Source of the DNA: Alphaproteobacteria bacterium
GTDB lineage: Bacteria; Pseudomonadota; Alphaproteobacteria; MPNO01
Direction of reading: 5' to 3'
NCBI GenBank assembly: GCA_964291675.2
Contig: OZ219865.1
Location: forward strand, 768,001-832,000
DNA: 64,000 bases
The translations under genes and the position numbers were made by a program. The notes under the pieces are model-generated. The model worked only from the letters and a program-made list of their open reading frames with translations. It did not search any database and had not been told where the DNA came from. Below are positions 57,065-64,000 of the stretch, one piece after another. The stretch's first letter is position 1; every line of letters starts with the position of its first letter.

Positions 57065-57850
57065 ATGAGCGAAGAGGCGATCACCAGGGCGGCCGCCGAC
57101 ATCCGCAGGGCGTGGGAGGACGGGGCGCCCATCGAGCCGGTGCGCGACGCGCTGCCCGACGGCGACGTGGACGCCGCCTATCGGGTGCAGCAGACCAATA
57201 CCGGGCATTGGGTGAAGCAGGGAAGGCGCATCGTCGGGCGCAAGATCGGGCTCACCGCCAAGGCGGTGCAGCTTCAGCTCGGCGTCGACCAGCCGGATTA
57301 CGGCATGCTGTTCGCCGACATGTGCATCGTCGACGGCGAGGAGATCGAACCCGGCCGCGTGCTCCAGCCGCGCTGCGAGGCAGAGGTGGCGCTCATTCTG
57401 CATTCGGCGCTCGACCGCGAGCAGCTTACGCTCGTCGATGTGATCGACTCGGTGGCCTACGCGCTGCCGGCGATCGAGGTGGTGGGCTCGCGCATCGCCG
57501 GCTGGAACATAAACATCGTCGACACCGTCGCCGACAACGCCTCGTCGGGCCTGTTCGTGCTCGGCACCCGGCCGGTCATGCTCGACGACCTCGATTTGCG
57601 CGAGTGCGGCATGGTGATGGAGAACAAGGGCGACCAGGTCTCGATCGGCGCCGGCGTCGCCTGCCTCGGCAACCCGCTGAACGCCGCGCTCTGGCTCGCC
57701 CGCAAGATGGTCGAGGTGGGCACGCCGCTCCAGGTGGGCGACGTGATCATGACCGGCGCGCTCGGGCCCATGGCGCCGGTCGCGGCGGGCGACGTGATGG
57801 AGGCCAGGATCGAGGGGCTGGGCTCGGTCAGGGCCGCCTTCGCCGGCTGA
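57065..57850 (+). CDS. mhpD: 2-keto-4-pentenoate hydratase
   Basis: [42 protein letters not shown]. Confidence 0.93.
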
Positions 57851-57861
57851 GGAGAGGGAGC

Positions 57862-58785
57862 ATGAAGACAAGGGTTGCGATCGTCGGTTCCGGCAATATC
57901 GGCACCGATCTGATGATCAAGATCCTCGAGACCTCGGACGCCCTGGAGATGGGCGCGCTGGTCGGCATCGACCCCGACTCGGACGGCCTCGCCCGCGCCC
58001 GCTCGAAGGGCGTCGCCACCACCCACGAGGGGCTGGAAGGGCTAACGCGGATGGCCGAATGGGCCGGTATCGAGATCGTCTTCGATGCCACCTCGGCGGG
58101 CGCGCACGCGGCCAACGCGAAGATCTGCCTGGAGCACGGCAAGACCGTAATCGACCTCACCCCCGCCGCCATCGGCCCCTATGTCGTGCCGGTGGTCAAC
58201 ATGGACGAGCATCTCGATGCGCCCAACATCAACATGGTCTCCTGCGGCGGCCAGGCGACCATCCCCATCGTGCACGCGGTCGACCGCGTGGCCCGGGTGC
58301 ATTACGGCGAGATCGTGGCCTCCATCGCCTCCAAATCGGCCGGGCCCGGCACGCGCGCCAATATCGACGAGTTCACCGAGACCACGTCGAAGGGGATCGA
58401 GGCGGTGGGCGGCGCCGAGCGCGGCAAGGCGATCATCGTGCTCAACCCGGCCGAGCCGCCGCTGCTGATGCGCGACACCATCTACATCCTGAGCGAGGAC
58501 GGCGACACCGACGCAATCGTGAAATCGATCGGGGACATGGTGGCCGAGGTGCAGGCCTATGTGCCGGGCTACCGGCTCAAGCAGGACGTGCAGTTCGAGC
58601 GCTTCGGCTCCAACAACCCGCTGCGCATCCCCGGGCTCGGCGAGTTCACCGGCATCAAGTCCTCGGTGTTCCTCGAGGTCGAGGGCGCCGGCCACTATCT
58701 GCCGACCTATGCCGGCAATCTCGACATCATGACCTCGGCCGCGCTCAAGACCGCCGAACGGCTGGTCGAGCGCCGCGCGGGCTGA
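57862..58785 (+). CDS. mhpF: Acetaldehyde dehydrogenase (acylating)
   Basis: [43 protein letters not shown]. Confidence 0.97.
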
Positions 58786-58802
58786 TGTCCCGGTTGCGCA
58801 GC

Positions 58803-58930
58803 GTGGATGCCCGGATCACCCCCGGACTCGTTCCGGGGGCCAGCCATGACGGAGAGGAGACGTCGGTGTGGAAAGGCCCGCCCTCGCTCCCCTCCCTCGT
58901 CATGCCCGGACTTGATCCGGGCACCCATGC
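58803..58930. repeat. Family-A REP pair between mhpF and dmpG
   Basis: GGATGCCCGGATCACCCCCGGACTCGTTCCGGGGGCCAGCCATGAC ... GTCATGCCCGGACTTGATCCGGGCACCC. Confidence 0.88.
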
Positions 58931-59021
58931 AGCCTCCGCCCGCACGACCGCCGGACGGGAGAGGTGGCGGCGCCAGTGGGTGCACGCCGAACTCTGAAAC
59001 ACGACGCTGAGGAGACCCGCC

Positions 59022-60065
59022 ATGGCCCTCGACCCGGAGAAGAAGATCTACATCCAGGACGTGACGCTGCGCGACGGCATGCACGCGATCCGCCACCAAT
59101 ACGGCCTGCACCACGTGACGGCGATCTGCAAGGCGCTCGACGACGCCAGGGTCGACGCCATCGAGGTGAGCCACGGCGACGGGCTCGCCGGGATGTCGTT
59201 CAACTACGGCTTCGCCGCCCATTCCGACATCGAGTATATCGAGGTCGCCGCCGATGCCGTCGAGCACGCGAAGATCGCGACGCTCCTGATCCCCGGCATC
59301 GGCACCGTCACCGACCTCAAGGACGCCTTCGATGCCGGCGCGCGGTCGGTCCGCATCGCCACCCACTGCACGGAGGCCGACATCGCCAGGCAGCACATCG
59401 AGTACGCCCGCGAAATCGGCATGGACGTGGCCGGCTTCCTGATGATGGCGCACATGATCCCGGCCGGCGAGCTGGTCGAGCAGGCGAAGCTGATGGAGGC
59501 CTATGGCGCGCACTGCGTCTACGTCACCGATTCGGGCGGCGCGCTGCTGATGGGCGACACCGCCGACCGCTTCGCCGCCTTCCGCGACGGGCTCAGGCCC
59601 GAGACCCAGCTCGGCATCCACGCCCACCACAATCTCAGCCTCGGCGTCGCCAACACCATCATCGCGCTGGAATACGGCGTGACCCGGGTCGACGCCTCGC
59701 TCGCCGGCATGGGGGCGGGCGCCGGCAACACCCCGCTCGAGGTCTTCATCGCCGTCGCCGACCGCGCCGGGCTCAACCACGGCTGCGATCTGTGGGCGCT
59801 GATGGACGCGGCGGAAGAGCTGGTCCGCCCGCTGCAGGACCGCCCGGTCCGGGTCGACCGCGAGACGCTGGCGCTCGGCTATACCGGCTCCTATTCGAGC
59901 TTCCTGCGCCACGCCGAGACCGCGTCGCAGACCTACGGCATCGACACGAGAGACATCCTGGTCGAGCTTGGCCGGAGGCGCATGGTGGGCGGCCAGGAGG
60001 ACATGATCGTCGACGTGGCGCTCGACCTCGCCAACGCCCGCGACGCCGCCCGCAAGGAGGCCTGA
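59022..60065 (+). CDS. dmpG: 4-hydroxy-2-oxovalerate aldolase
   Basis: [36 protein letters not shown]. Confidence 0.97.
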
Positions 60066-60068
60066 GCC

Positions 60069-60842
60069 ATGACCGATGTGGCAATCGCGCCGCTCGCCGA
60101 AGCCGTCGACACCGCCGCGATGAACGCCGAGGCGATCCCGCAGATCTCCGAGACCGTCGAGATCACGCCCGAGCAGGGCTACGACATCCAGGCCGCCTCG
60201 ATCCTGCGCCGCGTCGAGCGCGGGGAGCGGCGCATCGGCGTCAAGATGGGCTTCACCAGCCGCGCCAAGATGGTCCAGATGGGCATCTCGGACATGATCT
60301 GGGGCCGGCTGACGAACGGGATGATCGTGGAGGACGGCGATTCGATCTCGATGGCGGATTACGTCCACCCCAGGGCCGAGCCCGAGATCGCCTTCCTGCT
60401 GAACCGGCCGCTCGAAGCCCCGGTCACCGCGGCCGAGGCGATGGCCGCCGTCGAGGCGGTGGCGCCGGCGATCGAGATCATCGATTCGCGCTACCGCGAC
60501 TTCAAGTTCTCGCTCGCCGACGTGGTGGCCGACAACTGCTCGTCGTCCGGCATCGTGGTCGGCGCCTGGCAGTCGGTCGACGCCGACCTCACCAATCTCG
60601 GCATGATCCTGGAGATCGACGGCAGGCCGCGCCAGATCGGCTCGTCCGCCGCCATCCTGGGCAACCCGGCACGCTCGCTGGTCGCCGCCGCGCGCCTGTC
60701 CACCGCCGCCGGCGAGCCCCTGGAGCCCGGCTGGATCGTCATGGCCGGCGGCGCCACCGCCGCCGAGGCGCTGTCGGTCGGCGACTACGTGCGCAACACC
60801 GTGCAGCGGCTGGGCGCGGTCGGGTTCTCCGTCACCGCGTGA
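60069..60842 (+). CDS. dmpH: 4-oxalocrotonate decarboxylase
   Basis: GVKMGFTSRAKM.QMG, HPRAEPE, IIDSRY.DFKFSL.DV.ADN. Confidence 0.9.
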   Translation: MTDVAIAPLAEAVDTAAMNAEAIPQISETVEITPEQGYDIQAASILRRVERGERRIGVKMGFTSRAKMVQMGISDMIWGRLTNGMIVEDGDSISMADYVHPRAEPEIAFLLNRPLEAPVTAAEAMAAVEAVAPAIEIIDSRYRDFKFSLADVVADNCSSSGIVVGAWQSVDADLTNLGMILEIDGRPRQIGSSAAILGNPARSLVAAARLSTAAGEPLEPGWIVMAGGATAAEALSVGDYVRNTVQRLGAVGFSVTA

Positions 60843-60876
60843 GGGGCGCGATTCCGCCTTTCCGCCACGCCCTCCC

Positions 60877-61110
60877 CCGTCATGGCCCGGCCCCCGGATC
60901 AAGTCCGGGGGTGATCCGGGCATCCACTGGCGCCGCCGCTCCTTCCGACGGGGCGTTGTACCGGTGGCGCCAGTGGTTGCGCGGATCAAGTCCGCGCATG
61001 GGTGGCCGGATCAAGTCCGGCCATGACGAGGTGGTGGTCGCGGTGGAGGAGTACGGGAGCCGGGTGCGGCCCGCCCTGCCCGTGGGTGCCCGGAACGAGG
61101 CCGGGGTGAC
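60877..61110. repeat. Family-A REP/BIME cluster, left of the IS110
   Basis: 60877-61073 is an inverted counterpart of 63043-63222, including spacer sequence. Confidence 0.88.
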
Positions 61111-61328
61111 AACGGAGGGGCAGGGACGGCAAGTGCGGGCGTGCGGCGATCCGTGTCCCGATCCGGCGGATGCGCCGATATCCCGCCCGGAACAAGGCTT
61201 TGCGCCCCGTCCAGCGCATCTAAACCGTCATGGTCTCGGCGGTGCTGAGCCACCCCGTGGCATGAAACTCGGGGCGTTCGGCTGAGGGTTTGCCGATCGT
61301 CGCGCGGGTCTGCCGTGGCAGGATGGGA

Positions 61329-61552
61329 ATGGTGGAGGCGGCGACGCGTGAGCGTTCCGTTTATCGGTGATGTGGTTCCCGAGATATAAACTGCTTCCGG
61401 CGGTCGGCTCCGCACCCCGTACTGTGCCCGGCCCGCGGCCGTGGACGCGCGGCAAATCGAACCGCACCCGCTCGACGGGTGCGTGTCCTTCCGACCGCTG
61501 TCCCCGCCTCCACCGTGGCGATGCCACGGCGCGATCCTACGCCGCCGTGGCG
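61329..61552 (+). ncRNA. Candidate bridge/seek RNA in the IS110 left non-coding end
   Basis: Nested stems GGTGGAGGCGG(61331)/CCGCCTCCACC(61504), GCGGTCGG(61400)/CCGACCGC(61491) and CACCCG/CGGGTG(61465-61481); position upstream of an IS110 ORF; ends not determined. Confidence 0.6.
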
Positions 61553-61575
61553 AGAGCGCAACGAGGAGGACAGCG

Positions 61576-62826
61576 ATGAAGACGGAAGGCTTGCACGTCG
61601 TGCGGCCGCGCGCGGCGGGTCTGGACGTGCACAAGATGGAGATCACCGCGACGGTTCGCCTGTGCGAGGGCGAGGGCGAGCCGGTGGTGGAGACGCGCTG
61701 CTTCAGCTCGCTTCCGAGCGGTCTGGCGGAGATGGTCGCCTGGCTGACCGGTCGCCGCGTCGAGGCCGCTGTCATGGAAGGGACCGGGATCTACTGGCAG
61801 GCGCCCTTCGCGGCGGTGGAGGCGGCGGGGATCGAAGCGATCCTGGTGCACGCGCGTCAGGTCAAGCAGTTGAAGGGGCGCAAGACCGATGTCGCCGACA
61901 GCGTGTGGCTGGCCTGCGTGTGCCAGTTCGGGCTCTGCACGCCTTCCCATGTTCCCCCCGAGCCGTTCCGGGAGCTGCGCTCGCTGAGCCGCCAGCGGCG
62001 TACCCTGGTCAGGCAGCGCTCGACCGTGCGCAACCGGGTGCAGAAGATCGTCGACCGCGCCGGCCTGCGCATCGGCGGCATCCTCTCCGACGTCTTCGGC
62101 GTCAACGGCCGCAAGATCCTCGACGGGCTGGCGCAAGCCACGCCGCGCGCGGTCATCCTCGCCTCGCTCACCGGCCACGTCGCCAACAAGCTGGAGGGGC
62201 TCGGCGAGGCGCTCTCCCTGAGCCTGGGCGACAACGACCGCTTCATGCTCGGCGATCTGCTGGACGAGCATGACGCGCTCGAGGCGCGCATCGCGTCCTA
62301 CGGCGAGAAGATCGACCGGCAGATGACGCCGTGGCAGGAACAGCTCCGCCTGCTGACCACCATCCCCGGCATCGACCGCATCGCCGCCTCGACCATCCTG
62401 ATCGAGATCGGCCCGGATATCGAGGCGTTCGCCTCCAAGCAGCACTTCGCCGCCTGGGCCGGGCTCTGCCCCGGCAACAACGAAAGCGGCGGAAAGCGCC
62501 GCAACGCGCGCACCCGAAGGGGCTCCAAGACGCTGCGCGCCAGCCTCGTCGAATGTGCCCACGGCGCGGCCCGAACCAAGGGGTGCCAGTTCGAGGCCCA
62601 CCACCGCGCGCTCGCCGCCCGGCGCGGATACAAGCGCGCCATCGTGGCCAGCGCACACAAGATGCTGCGCATCGTTTATGTCGTGCTCAAGACCGGCAGG
62701 CCCTACTACGACCGCACCGCCGACTACGACGCGCTGATGGTCAAGCGCAACGCCCCGCGCTGGATCCGAATGCTCCGCCGCTACGGCTACATCCAACCCC
62801 GGCGCGCCGAACCCAAGGCCACCTGA
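61576..62826 (+). CDS. IS110-family transposase/recombinase (DEDD RuvC plus Tnp domain)
   Basis: GLDVHK, VMEGTG.YW, GRKTDVADS, TIPGI, AWAGLCPGNNESGGK (catalytic Ser), KRAIVA.AHK; GAGGAGG RBS. Confidence 0.97.
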   Translation: MKTEGLHVVRPRAAGLDVHKMEITATVRLCEGEGEPVVETRCFSSLPSGLAEMVAWLTGRRVEAAVMEGTGIYWQAPFAAVEAAGIEAILVHARQVKQLKGRKTDVADSVWLACVCQFGLCTPSHVPPEPFRELRSLSRQRRTLVRQRSTVRNRVQKIVDRAGLRIGGILSDVFGVNGRKILDGLAQATPRAVILASLTGHVANKLEGLGEALSLSLGDNDRFMLGDLLDEHDALEARIASYGEKIDRQMTPWQEQLRLLTTIPGIDRIAASTILIEIGPDIEAFASKQHFAAWAGLCPGNNESGGKRRNARTRRGSKTLRASLVECAHGAARTKGCQFEAHHRALAARRGYKRAIVASAHKMLRIVYVVLKTGRPYYDRTADYDALMVKRNAPRWIRMLRRYGYIQPRRAEPKAT

Positions 62827-62996
62827 CCGGCCCGCATAACGCCGGACCGCCGCGCGGGACCGCTTCGGGCCACATCGGGGAAGTCCACCGCTCGTCTCGC
62901 CGCCCCCTTCCGGCGATCTCAGCCAACTCCCTCCCGGCGTTGGATGGGGCCCTCGCGCGCCCCCACCGAAACTGTTTCACGGCAACCGGACAGCAG

Positions 62997-63222
62997 TGGA
63001 TCGAGTCCGGGCATGACGATGGGGGGAGGCATGGCGCTGGGGCGGGCCGCGCCCGGCTCTCCATGCTCCTGCTCCTCCACCGCCACCACCACCCCGTCAT
63101 GGCCGGACTTGATCCGGCCATCCATGCGGCGTCTTCGCCTGCGAGGCGGCCGGGCGGGAGGGGCGGCGCCAGTGGGTGCCCGGATCACCCCCGGACTTGA
63201 TCCGGGGGCCGGGGCATGACGG
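62997..63222. repeat. Family-A REP/BIME cluster, right of the IS110
   Basis: GATCGAGTCCGGGCATGAC, GTCATGGCCGGACTTGATCCGGCCATCC and a nested-hairpin copy at 63174-63220. Confidence 0.88.
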
Positions 63223-63243
63223 TATGGTGGGCTGGCCGAAGCC

Positions 63244-63347
63244 CGTCCCTCCATACGGCCCTTCGGGCCTGCTCGGGATGAGGTGTTTTCGTGAAGGGCG
63301 CTCAACTCCTCCTGGGTAGCGCCCACAGGGCGCGTATCGAAGGACGC
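63244..63347. repeat. Degenerate family-B REP doublet
   Basis: CGTCCCTCCATACGGCCCTTCGGGCCTGCTCGGGATGAGG ... GCGTATCGAAGGACG. Confidence 0.8.
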
Positions 63348-63414
63348 CGCGCTTCCATCCCGAACCGACACGCCCTAGACTCCGCCGCCCGAGCGACATC
63401 CCGGAGGCGGAGCC

Positions 63415-64000
63415 ATGACGTCGCATGTGCTGGGCGGTGCGTTCGTTCCCCATGCGCCGCAGTTCTTCACCATGCCGGAGACCGAGGACCCCGACACGGT
63501 GGCGCGGGTGCGCGAGGTCGCCGGGCGGATCGGCGCGGCGCTGGCAGCGCTCAGGCCGGATGTCTGGATCGTGATCGCCAACGACCACGTCAACCAGTTC
63601 TTCCTGCACTGCACGCCGGCCTTCGCGCTGCACACCGGCGCCGAGGTCAGGGGCTCGTTCGCCGGGCGCGAGTTCCGCTACGAGGTGGCGAGCGCCACCG
63701 CGCACGGGCTGATCCGCCACCTCCAGTCCGAGGGGTTCGACCCCGCCTTCACCTCGACCGCCGAGATCGACTACGCCTTCGGCATCCCGCTCGCCCATCT
63801 CGGCGTCGACGCGCCGATCGTGCCGCTCTACGTCAACGCCTATGTGCCGCCGCAGCCCTCGATGGAGCGCTGCTACGGCTTCGGCCAGGCGCTGGCCCGG
63901 GCGCTGGCGGCGATCGACGTGCGCGCGGTGGTGATCGCGAGCGGCGGCATGTCGCATTTCCCGGGCACCGAGCGCTACTCCGAGCCCGACCTCGAATTCG
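63415..64000 (+). CDS. LigB-type (class III) extradiol ring-cleavage dioxygenase, runs off the window end
   Basis: Manual translation: PHAPQF, RPDVWIVIANDH, PIVPLYVN, PQPSMERCY.FG, ASGGMSHFPG; not in the ORF track because no stop lies in the window. Confidence 0.88.
   Translation, partial: MTSHVLGGAFVPHAPQFFTMPETEDPDTVARVREVAGRIGAALAALRPDVWIVIANDHVNQFFLHCTPAFALHTGAEVRGSFAGREFRYEVASATAHGLIRHLQSEGFDPAFTSTAEIDYAFGIPLAHLGVDAPIVPLYVNAYVPPQPSMERCYGFGQALARALAAIDVRAVVIASGGMSHFPGTERYSEPDLEF

Follow-up and report, generated by a model that had tools for sequence, protein, structure and literature searches.

A probable bridge RNA with corrected guide coordinates in the left end of an alphaproteobacterial IS110-family insertion sequence

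Introduction

To our knowledge, no guides other than bridge RNAs are known to specify both of the DNA partners that recombine. In an alphaproteobacterial genome, a structured non-coding stretch at positions 61329-61516 of the window (the whole 64,000-nucleotide piece of DNA that was analysed) raises the question of whether it encodes such an RNA and, if so, which of its bases would read the target and which the donor. A preliminary description of the same DNA had proposed a bridge-RNA-like structured RNA in the left end of an IS110-family element, with loops matching target and donor. This general reading is borne out by the protein family, the fold and the covariation, and an IS110-family insertion sequence very probably has its bridge RNA (seekRNA) encoded here. 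The guides, in turn, are placed elsewhere in the RNA than had been suggested, and the evidence for their positions comes from the comparison of many related elements with the sites into which they are inserted.

Sequences and comparisons

The family sample comprised 79 loci from genome contigs and 15 from metagenome contigs, those of the latter with usable ends being used. Loci L004 and L069 were dropped because they lack an anchor, and 400 genomes sampled from the same class added only three distant relatives, which were left out. The 39 unique RNA segments were reduced to 34 distinct trimmed sequences, of which 27 were folded together; the proteins of the elements that carry these 27 are 57-99% identical to that of the window. 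Guides were sought by comparing the RNA of each element with its own flanks, left guides being read in the sense of the top strand and right guides as complementary to it. This is also the rule of IS621, as set out in the available parts of the two reports on that element (PMC11208160; PMC11208158).

The element and its insertion sites

The stretch is part of the non-coding left end of an IS110-family insertion sequence of about 1.76 kb, which occupies about 61222-62985 on the + strand (Table 1). The product of ORF 61576-62826 scores 266.6 bits against the NCBIfam model NF033542, "IS110 family RNA-guided transposase" (cut-off 140); the recombinases in the IS621 and ISCro4 structures are distant relatives of this protein (E ~1e-14), and its best plasmid-borne relative is 43% identical. 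The non-coding ends measure about 350 nt on the left and about 160 nt on the right, and the structured region lies in the longer of the two, beside the DEDD recombinase gene. The organism's own genome (4.8 Mb in two contigs) holds eight copies of the element with 99-100% identity, all of them inserted at one identical point of one repeat family, and no RNA-only (orphan) copy without the transposase gene was found there. As genome annotation, the seating is ordinary: a multi-copy insertion sequence within a repeat. The ORFs on both sides presumably belong to one aromatic meta-cleavage set, with acetaldehyde dehydrogenase-like, 4-hydroxy-2-oxovalerate aldolase-like and hydratase/decarboxylase-like ORFs at 57112-60842 and an extradiol-dioxygenase-like ORF downstream of the element at 63415-64000.

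The ends of the element are ambiguous within AAACCG (left 61222-27; right AA 62984-85), because donor and target both carry an AAACCG run. In the own genome, the left junctions read ...CAT(A/C)T-AAA-CCG-TCATGG and the right junctions ...TTTCACGGC-AA(A)-CCGGACAGCAGTGG; the left half of the target ends in ...CATCT-AAA in the window copy and in CATAT-AAA in five of the eight copies. Among the relatives, the right junction is always GCAA plus any base, and the left junction is an A-run followed by C-N-N-NCATGG. Since the junctions of copies and relatives share the A-run at this place, the crossover is put within it, and AA is the likely core of strand exchange, in an exact register that the sequence leaves ambiguous. 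In all parsed loci, AA lies within the A-run at both junctions (with one-base register shifts in three elements), the cores of donor and target are identical, and no target bases are duplicated beyond the core.

The repeat that serves as target is about 140 nt long. Its empty sites in the own genome number 122 when N7+AAACCGGACAGC is matched with at most one mismatch (130 site hits minus the eight right junctions of the element itself). In the 61 empty sites that contain the exact 12-mer, the four bases before AAA include GGCT (28 sites), ATCT (13), ATCC (12) and ACAT (4). GC-rich palindromic repeats of the GGCCGGATCAAGTCCGGCC type lie around the target repeat, at 60860-61030 and 63080-63210.

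The DNA of the element's ends has features of its own. The stem of the subterminal hairpin at the left end appears in relatives, by eye, as GGCCGGAC/GCCGGCC, GGTCG/CGACC and GGTGGG/CCCACC. The subterminal inverted repeat of 7-9 bp is asymmetric, with its right arm 4 nt from the end and its left arm about 37 nt inside the element, beyond the hairpin. In 19 of 19 element types, the base beside TTTC/GAAA in this repeat (G, A or C) agrees with that of the other arm, and such covariation suggests, rather than a fixed protein site, base pairing between RNA and DNA or in a hairpin that spans the circle junction. The motif CACCCCGU occurs twice, once in the DNA of the left end, some 27 nt inward (61252-61257), and once in the 5' strand of the donor multi-loop (61415-61420); all relatives keep its CCCCG unchanged at the two positions, and in most the base that follows is identical or wobble-compatible.

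Some copies are irregular. At C2:1939758-1939926 of the own genome (locus L006/L009), a copy has a further, incomplete right end behind it (bases 1689-1876 of the copy-search query), and near C1:1046197 (locus L008) a copy carries a 15-nt duplication (AAACTGTTTCACGGC) at its right end. Both are traces of repeated or aberrant right-end recombination. A relative with 91% protein identity (loci L044, L049, L050, L054, L055, L058 and L097) has at least 37 copies in one genome, and its insertion sites share only (G/A)ACAA-AA, with a next base that is mostly A. Several of these copies stand head to tail, the right end GGCAA(A)A running into the left end CAGTCATGG, as if the element's own right end had served as target.

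Table 1. Features of the insertion sequence, its predicted bridge RNA and its target repeat (window positions)
Feature	Position	Strand	Basis or remark
Left half of target repeat	61150-61224	+	Query bases 1-78 match dozens of genome places; flanks read
IS110-family insertion sequence, ~1.76 kb	61222-62985	+	8 copies with 99-100% identity in own genome; junction reading
Right donor (RD), CCG + TCATGG; family pattern C-N-N-NCATGG	61225-61233	+	Junction comparison
Subterminal hairpin of left end (GGTCTCGG...CTGAGCC)	61232-61251	+	Stem kept with other letters in relatives, by eye
Left arm of subterminal inverted repeat, CATGAAAC	61261-61268	+	Partner 62974-62981
Predicted bridge RNA core: P1 closing a three-way junction of target domain and donor domain	61329-61516	+	Consensus and MFE folds
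P1 (outer stem)	61332-44 with 61501-15	+	7/10 pairs changed on both sides
Basal stem of target domain, GAGCG with UGCUU	61350-54 with 61392-96	+	GC/AU/UA/CG exchanges
Putative right target guide (RTG), UCCGUUU, complementary to top strand AA(A)C-GGA of right flank	61356-61362	+	
Apical stem-loop of target domain	61365-61381; stem 61365-70 with 61377-81	+	Columns 39-44/57-61 pair in 100% of cells
Putative left target guide (LTG), AUAU+AAA, in sense of left-flank top strand	61384-61390	+	7 bases before conserved CUG
P2, basal stem of donor domain	61398-407 with 61491-500	+	4/9 pairs changed on both sides
P2a hairpin in donor multi-loop	61423-61447; stem 61423-32 with 61438-47	+	Consensus helix 5
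Putative left donor guide (LDG), CGCGGCAAA, in same sense as right end CACGGCAA(A)	61448-61456	+	Covariation with right ends
P3 hairpin	61463-61483; stem 61463-69 with 61477-83	+	4/7 pairs changed on both sides
3' strand of donor multi-loop, UGUCCUU	61484-61490	+	Contains TGTCC
Variable leader of transposase gene, GAGGAGG at 61563-69	61517-61575	+	Alignment; short or absent in distant relatives
Transposase/recombinase gene, 416 aa	61576-62826	+	PF01548 (DEDD_Tnp_IS110) + PF02371 (Transposase_20)
Right end: inverted-repeat arm GTTTCACG (62974-81) overlapping left donor CACGGC + core AA (62978-85)	62974-62985	+	
Right half of target repeat (CCGGACAGCAGTGG...)	62986-63050	+	Copy search, junction reading

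Fold and transcription of the left-end region

Folded as a single sequence, 61329-61518 has a minimum-free-energy (MFE) structure with a z-score of -3.0, and none of 200 shuffles folds as well. This structure consists of an outer stem, a GUGA hairpin, a hairpin at 61359-61391, an inner domain and a hairpin at 61465-81, which are the helices named in the preliminary description. The outer stem, the inner domain and the hairpin 61465-81 correspond to P1, P2 and P3 and show compensatory changes, whereas the GUGA hairpin and the long hairpin 61359-61391 are not kept in the family. The basal and apical stems of the target domain are found instead, and both are also present in the centroid fold of the window sequence alone.

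The consensus structure of the 27 relatives has 45 pairs, which can form in 96.2% of cells as compared with 86.2% in shuffles and 40-49% when the partners are slid. None of 500 shuffles pairs as highly, and 21 of the 45 pairs have changed on both sides in a compensatory manner. In the basal stem of the target domain, for example, columns 23/75 hold GC in 13 sequences and AU in 10, and columns 24/74 hold UA in 12, GC in 11, AU in 3 and CG in 1. It is this covariation that shows the predicted three-way junction of P1, target domain and donor domain. The suggestion that the enclosing multi-branch fold differs from that of IS621 has held, in the form of a junction closed by P1 and a donor domain built as a multi-loop. 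Many of the pairs are G-U pairs that can form on the + strand only (columns 26/72 are GU in 25 of 27 sequences and columns 106/135 UG in 21 of 27), and these favour an RNA with the same orientation as the gene. A pairing of GUUUAU (61359-64) with AUAAAC (61386-91) inside the RNA was considered and is not conserved in the relatives. An Rfam scan of 60800-63400, with E up to 10, returned chance-level matches only, all far below the gathering scores.

A search for sigma-70-like promoters found none, either in the left end or across the point at which, in a relative, a right end and a left end are naturally joined in tandem. Two metatranscriptome libraries contain contigs that span parts of 61221-61536 in relatives, one of them continuous with the gene. 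They are a weak hint of transcription, as such contigs reveal nothing of strand or ends, the libraries may also contain DNA, and stretches without coverage carry no information.

Target guides

The two putative target guides face each other in the target domain. On the 3' side, the LTG is identical to the left flank at 4.32 of 7 positions, compared with 2.57 ± 0.18 after permutation (21 guide types, 75 sites), and 0 of 5000 permutations score as high; here and below, such counts overstate the significance because the relatives share kinship and are not independent. When L087, L110 and L118, in which the register is shifted by one, are left out of the count by position, the four bases 5' of AAA reach identities of 0.96, 0.92, 0.92 and 0.72 as compared with 0.27-0.43 in permutations. 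The variable part of the LTG is four bases only.

Single elements illustrate the same correspondence. The closest relative (99% protein identity) has the LTG AUCUAAA, and two of its three copies stand behind CATCTAAA. One genome carries two elements with the LTGs CACCAAA and ACGCAAA and a second genome two elements with CCUAAAA and CACGAAA, and each of the four stands behind a matching flank. In the own genome, five ATAT-AAA sites are occupied and three are empty, all three of the latter having a broken A-run, whereas three of the other repeat members are occupied and 119 are empty (Fisher p = 1e-5). At the metagenome locus L110, the left junction reads AAT and not AAA, and the LTG reads ...AAU. 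Because the junction matches the guide in this way, the guide base after AA follows the first base of the donor and not that of the target at this locus, a pattern that recalls, in a single case, the handshake positions of IS621.

On the 5' side, the putative RTG is the variable stretch that lies between two conserved motifs, GUGAGCGU/GUGGUCGU and (U)AUCGG/(U)AAUGG. In a fixed register, it pairs with the right flank at 2.53 of 6 positions against 1.87 ± 0.18 after permutation (0 of 5000; 24 RNA types, 68 sites). With A/U runs collapsed, the first three positions pair at frequencies of 0.67, 0.42 and 0.62, as opposed to 0.34, 0.25 and 0.30 in permutations. Clear cases of guide and flank are CCGCAU with ATGCGG, GAAGGU with ACCTTC and GCGGU with ACCGC, and in the window the RTG can be paired to AA(A)CCGGA if one mismatch or bulge is allowed. 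The signal of this guide, modest and weaker than that of the LTG, would correspond to about 3 nt plus the U-run.

Other candidates were set aside. The CUG and UCG by which the LTG and LDG could be extended past the A-run are, by eye, either constant or vary without following the right donor or the right target. GCUGUCC (61498-504), considered as a right target guide, is conserved in relatives with other targets and is part of P1.

Donor recognition

The LDG agrees with the right end at 4.75 of 6 positions, compared with 4.18 ± 0.18 after permutation (2 of 5000; 12 distinct guide/end pairs). At the G/A position (CGGCAA versus CAGCAA), guide and right end agree in 12 of 12 element types, and elements with the right end CAGCAA carry CAGCAAA in the RNA.

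No right donor guide was found in five RNA regions that were compared with the core plus the first five donor bases, as 299-950 of 1000 permutations score as high. The strand 61484-61490 covaries with neither the right target nor the right donor. GCCGUGG (61438-44), the 3' strand of P2a, can pair with the invariant TCATGG of the right donor by means of G-T wobbles, and 20 of 27 sequences have such a stretch, of at least six pairs, in identical columns. Both partners are invariant and hence give no covariation signal, and GCCGUGG could be the right donor guide as a candidate only. In a single case, that of one distant element, the right donor has TCT in place of C-N-N and the RNA has AGAU in place of AGUU after P3. 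A[CUA][UC]GU (61419-25) was rejected as a right donor guide, with no compensation at the variable donor positions either by eye or in the permutation test, and a column-by-position scan of the RNA against the right donor yielded phylogenetic and composition signal only.

These results revise the guide positions of the preliminary description. The letters of its motifs stand where it had placed them (AAATCGAACCG at 61454-61464, TGTCC at 61484-61488 and GTGATGTGGTT at 61367-61377), and the target matches of AACCG and TGTCC exist, but the columns concerned are constant in relatives with other targets, and covariation of 61454-61464 and 61484-61488 with the targets of homologs was not seen. AAATCGAACCG, which had been taken for the left target guide, begins with the AAA that ends the LDG, and its ACCG is the invariant start of P3. 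The strand 61484-90 with TGTCC, proposed as the right target guide, scores 3.59 against the right flanks and 3.70 when permuted (1589 of 2000 permutations as high). The supposed target loop at 61454-61488 is the donor loop, and the target guides lie about 70-100 nt upstream of it. The supposed donor loop at 61367-77 caps the target domain as its apical loop. It does not covary with the donor, and distant relatives have a base-paired hairpin there.

Proposed mechanism

By analogy with IS621 and ISEc21, an RNA made from the left end would bind the DEDD recombinase of the element. As covariation shows, the target domain is an internal loop whose 5' strand UCCGUUU complements the top strand immediately to the right of the insertion point. 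The 3' strand AUAUAAA has the top-strand sense of the bases just left of that point and would accordingly pair with the bottom strand. Covariation likewise shows that CGCGGCAAA, in the donor domain, is in the sense of the right end CACGGCAA(A). The junctions place strand exchange inside the shared A-run, with AA as the likely core. In a repeat family that has about 120 empty copies, the guide bases AUAU would select the members with ATAT-AAA-CCGG.

Comparison with known systems and alternative explanations

The known systems are described here as they appear in the available parts of the cited texts. Like the bridge RNA of IS621 (PMC11208160; PMC11208158), the RNA is specified by the left end, ahead of the gene for a DEDD recombinase that carries PF01548 and PF02371, has a length of about 180-190 nt and combines one target domain with one donor domain. 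As in IS621, left guides are in the top-strand sense and include the core, the right guide is complementary to the top strand, and insertion takes place into a repeated extragenic sequence. There are differences as well. The recombinase is a distant relative only (E ~1e-14 to the IS621 structure, with residues 254-377 of the window's protein as the best-scoring stretch) and has 416 aa, compared with 328 in the IS621 chain, and the core lies in an A-run instead of CT. The RTG (61356-62) is 5' of the LTG (61384-90), while in IS621 the LTG (50-58) precedes the RTG (77-80). The outer stem P1 encloses both domains in a three-way junction where IS621 has two successive stem-loops, and the donor guide lies in a multi-loop between two hairpins, not in a simple internal loop. 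A right donor guide was not found in the five RNA regions tested. The IS621-type architecture of successive stem-loops, simple internal loops and a left guide 5' of the right guide is therefore not the one found here.

The reversed order of the target guides recalls the seekRNAs of the IS1111 family (ISEc11, ISPa11 and ISKpn4; Siddiquee et al., 2024, PMC11187229), in which the top-strand match is also 5' of the bottom-strand match. Alternatively, the element could belong to the IS1111 group, with a non-coding region that lies upstream by chance, and this would explain the guide order, the multi-loop donor domain and the inverted repeat together. Subterminal inverted repeats are present in the IS1111 family (PMC11187229), a covarying repeat of 7-9 bp is present here, Durrant et al. 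(PMC11208160) note a donor guide in a multi-loop for many IS1111 orthologues, and for a few members of the IS1111 group a non-coding region ahead of the gene has been recorded. In the published descriptions (PMC11187229; PMC11208160), however, the non-coding region lies downstream of a gene for 330-350 aa and the inverted repeats measure 7-17 bp; the element has an upstream region, a protein of 416 aa and a repeat that is asymmetric, 4 nt from the right end as opposed to about 37 nt from the left. The protein length fits the subgroup around IS110 itself (395-455 aa), a placement made by length only. Membership in the IS1111 group is accordingly improbable.

Two further systems share single traits with the element. 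ISEc21, whose seekRNA is of the IS110 type (PMC11187229), likewise has its non-coding region upstream, although its top-strand match is 3' of the bottom-strand match, the reverse of the order seen here. ISPpu9 and ISPpu10 of Pseudomonas putida (PMC12288879; 10.64898/2026.03.19.712850) are also multi-copy IS110-family elements, all inserted in one repeated intergenic sequence; they belong to another host and another sequence family, and the likeness noted here concerns copy number and insertion habit. According to the available part of a 2026 preprint (10.64898/2026.10.21.760802), many bridge-RNA covariance models deviate from the IS621 fold, so variant architectures as such are to be expected. 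A literature search returned no report of the RTG-before-LTG order combined with an upstream RNA, and S12 of the same preprint may already show the architecture.

It is very unlikely that the structure works without guides, either as a leader of the transposase mRNA that controls translation or stability or as a DNA recombination site, with the flank matches reflecting a site bias of the protein. Although the region lies directly upstream of the ribosome-binding site, the promoter search was negative and guide function itself rests on sequence comparison, a preference of the protein alone would not couple RNA columns to flanks across at least 20 element types. The leader at 61517-75 is dispensable in relatives whereas 61329-61516 is kept, the G-U pairs specific to the + strand fit an RNA, and the protein family is the RNA-guided one (NF033542).

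Hardly credible is the original layout, with target guides AAAUCGAACCG and UGUCC around the hairpin 61465-81 and a donor-reading loop at 61367-77. In its favour, 5-nt matches exist, GCUGUCC (61498-504) offers a further complement to the right flank GGACAGC, and UGA..GGUU in 61367-77 can pair with the donor AACC.TCA in the window. Against it, the columns of 61457-64 and 61484-90 are constant where targets differ, GUCCCC (61500-505) forms the 3' side of P1, where the closest relative shows a compensating change, 61448-56 follows the right end of the donor, and a donor change of C to A in close relatives is met in the loop by G to A and not by U.

The bridge RNA thus remains the best explanation. 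As far as they were tested by such comparisons, the RNA appears to have the defining features of an IS110-family bridge RNA or seekRNA, except for the right donor guide.

Implications

The RNA is very probably a real bridge RNA of a known kind, a modest architectural variant for which the guide coordinates are now corrected. Natural variants of bridge RNAs show which parts of the scaffold tolerate rearrangement. The clade described here reads a short target of 4 + 3 + about 3 nt, its target guides stand in the opposite order to those of IS621 and ISEc21 despite the upstream position of the RNA, and no right donor guide is evident. If that holds, it bears on the relation between the IS110 and IS1111 layouts and on the share of donor recognition that has to be based on RNA.

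It is possible, if rather doubtful, that these elements represent a clade of IS110-type recombinases of about 410 aa with an upstream bridge RNA whose plan differs from that of previously studied upstream RNAs, and in which an IS1111-like guide order is combined with a three-way junction closed by a long-range stem and with a donor domain that has no base-pairing right donor guide. If this were true, the right donor would be read by the protein together with the covarying asymmetric inverted repeat (61261-68 with 62974-81), and the clade would be a link between the IS110 and IS1111 designs. For the element itself, the corrected coordinates tell which bases to change for retargeting.
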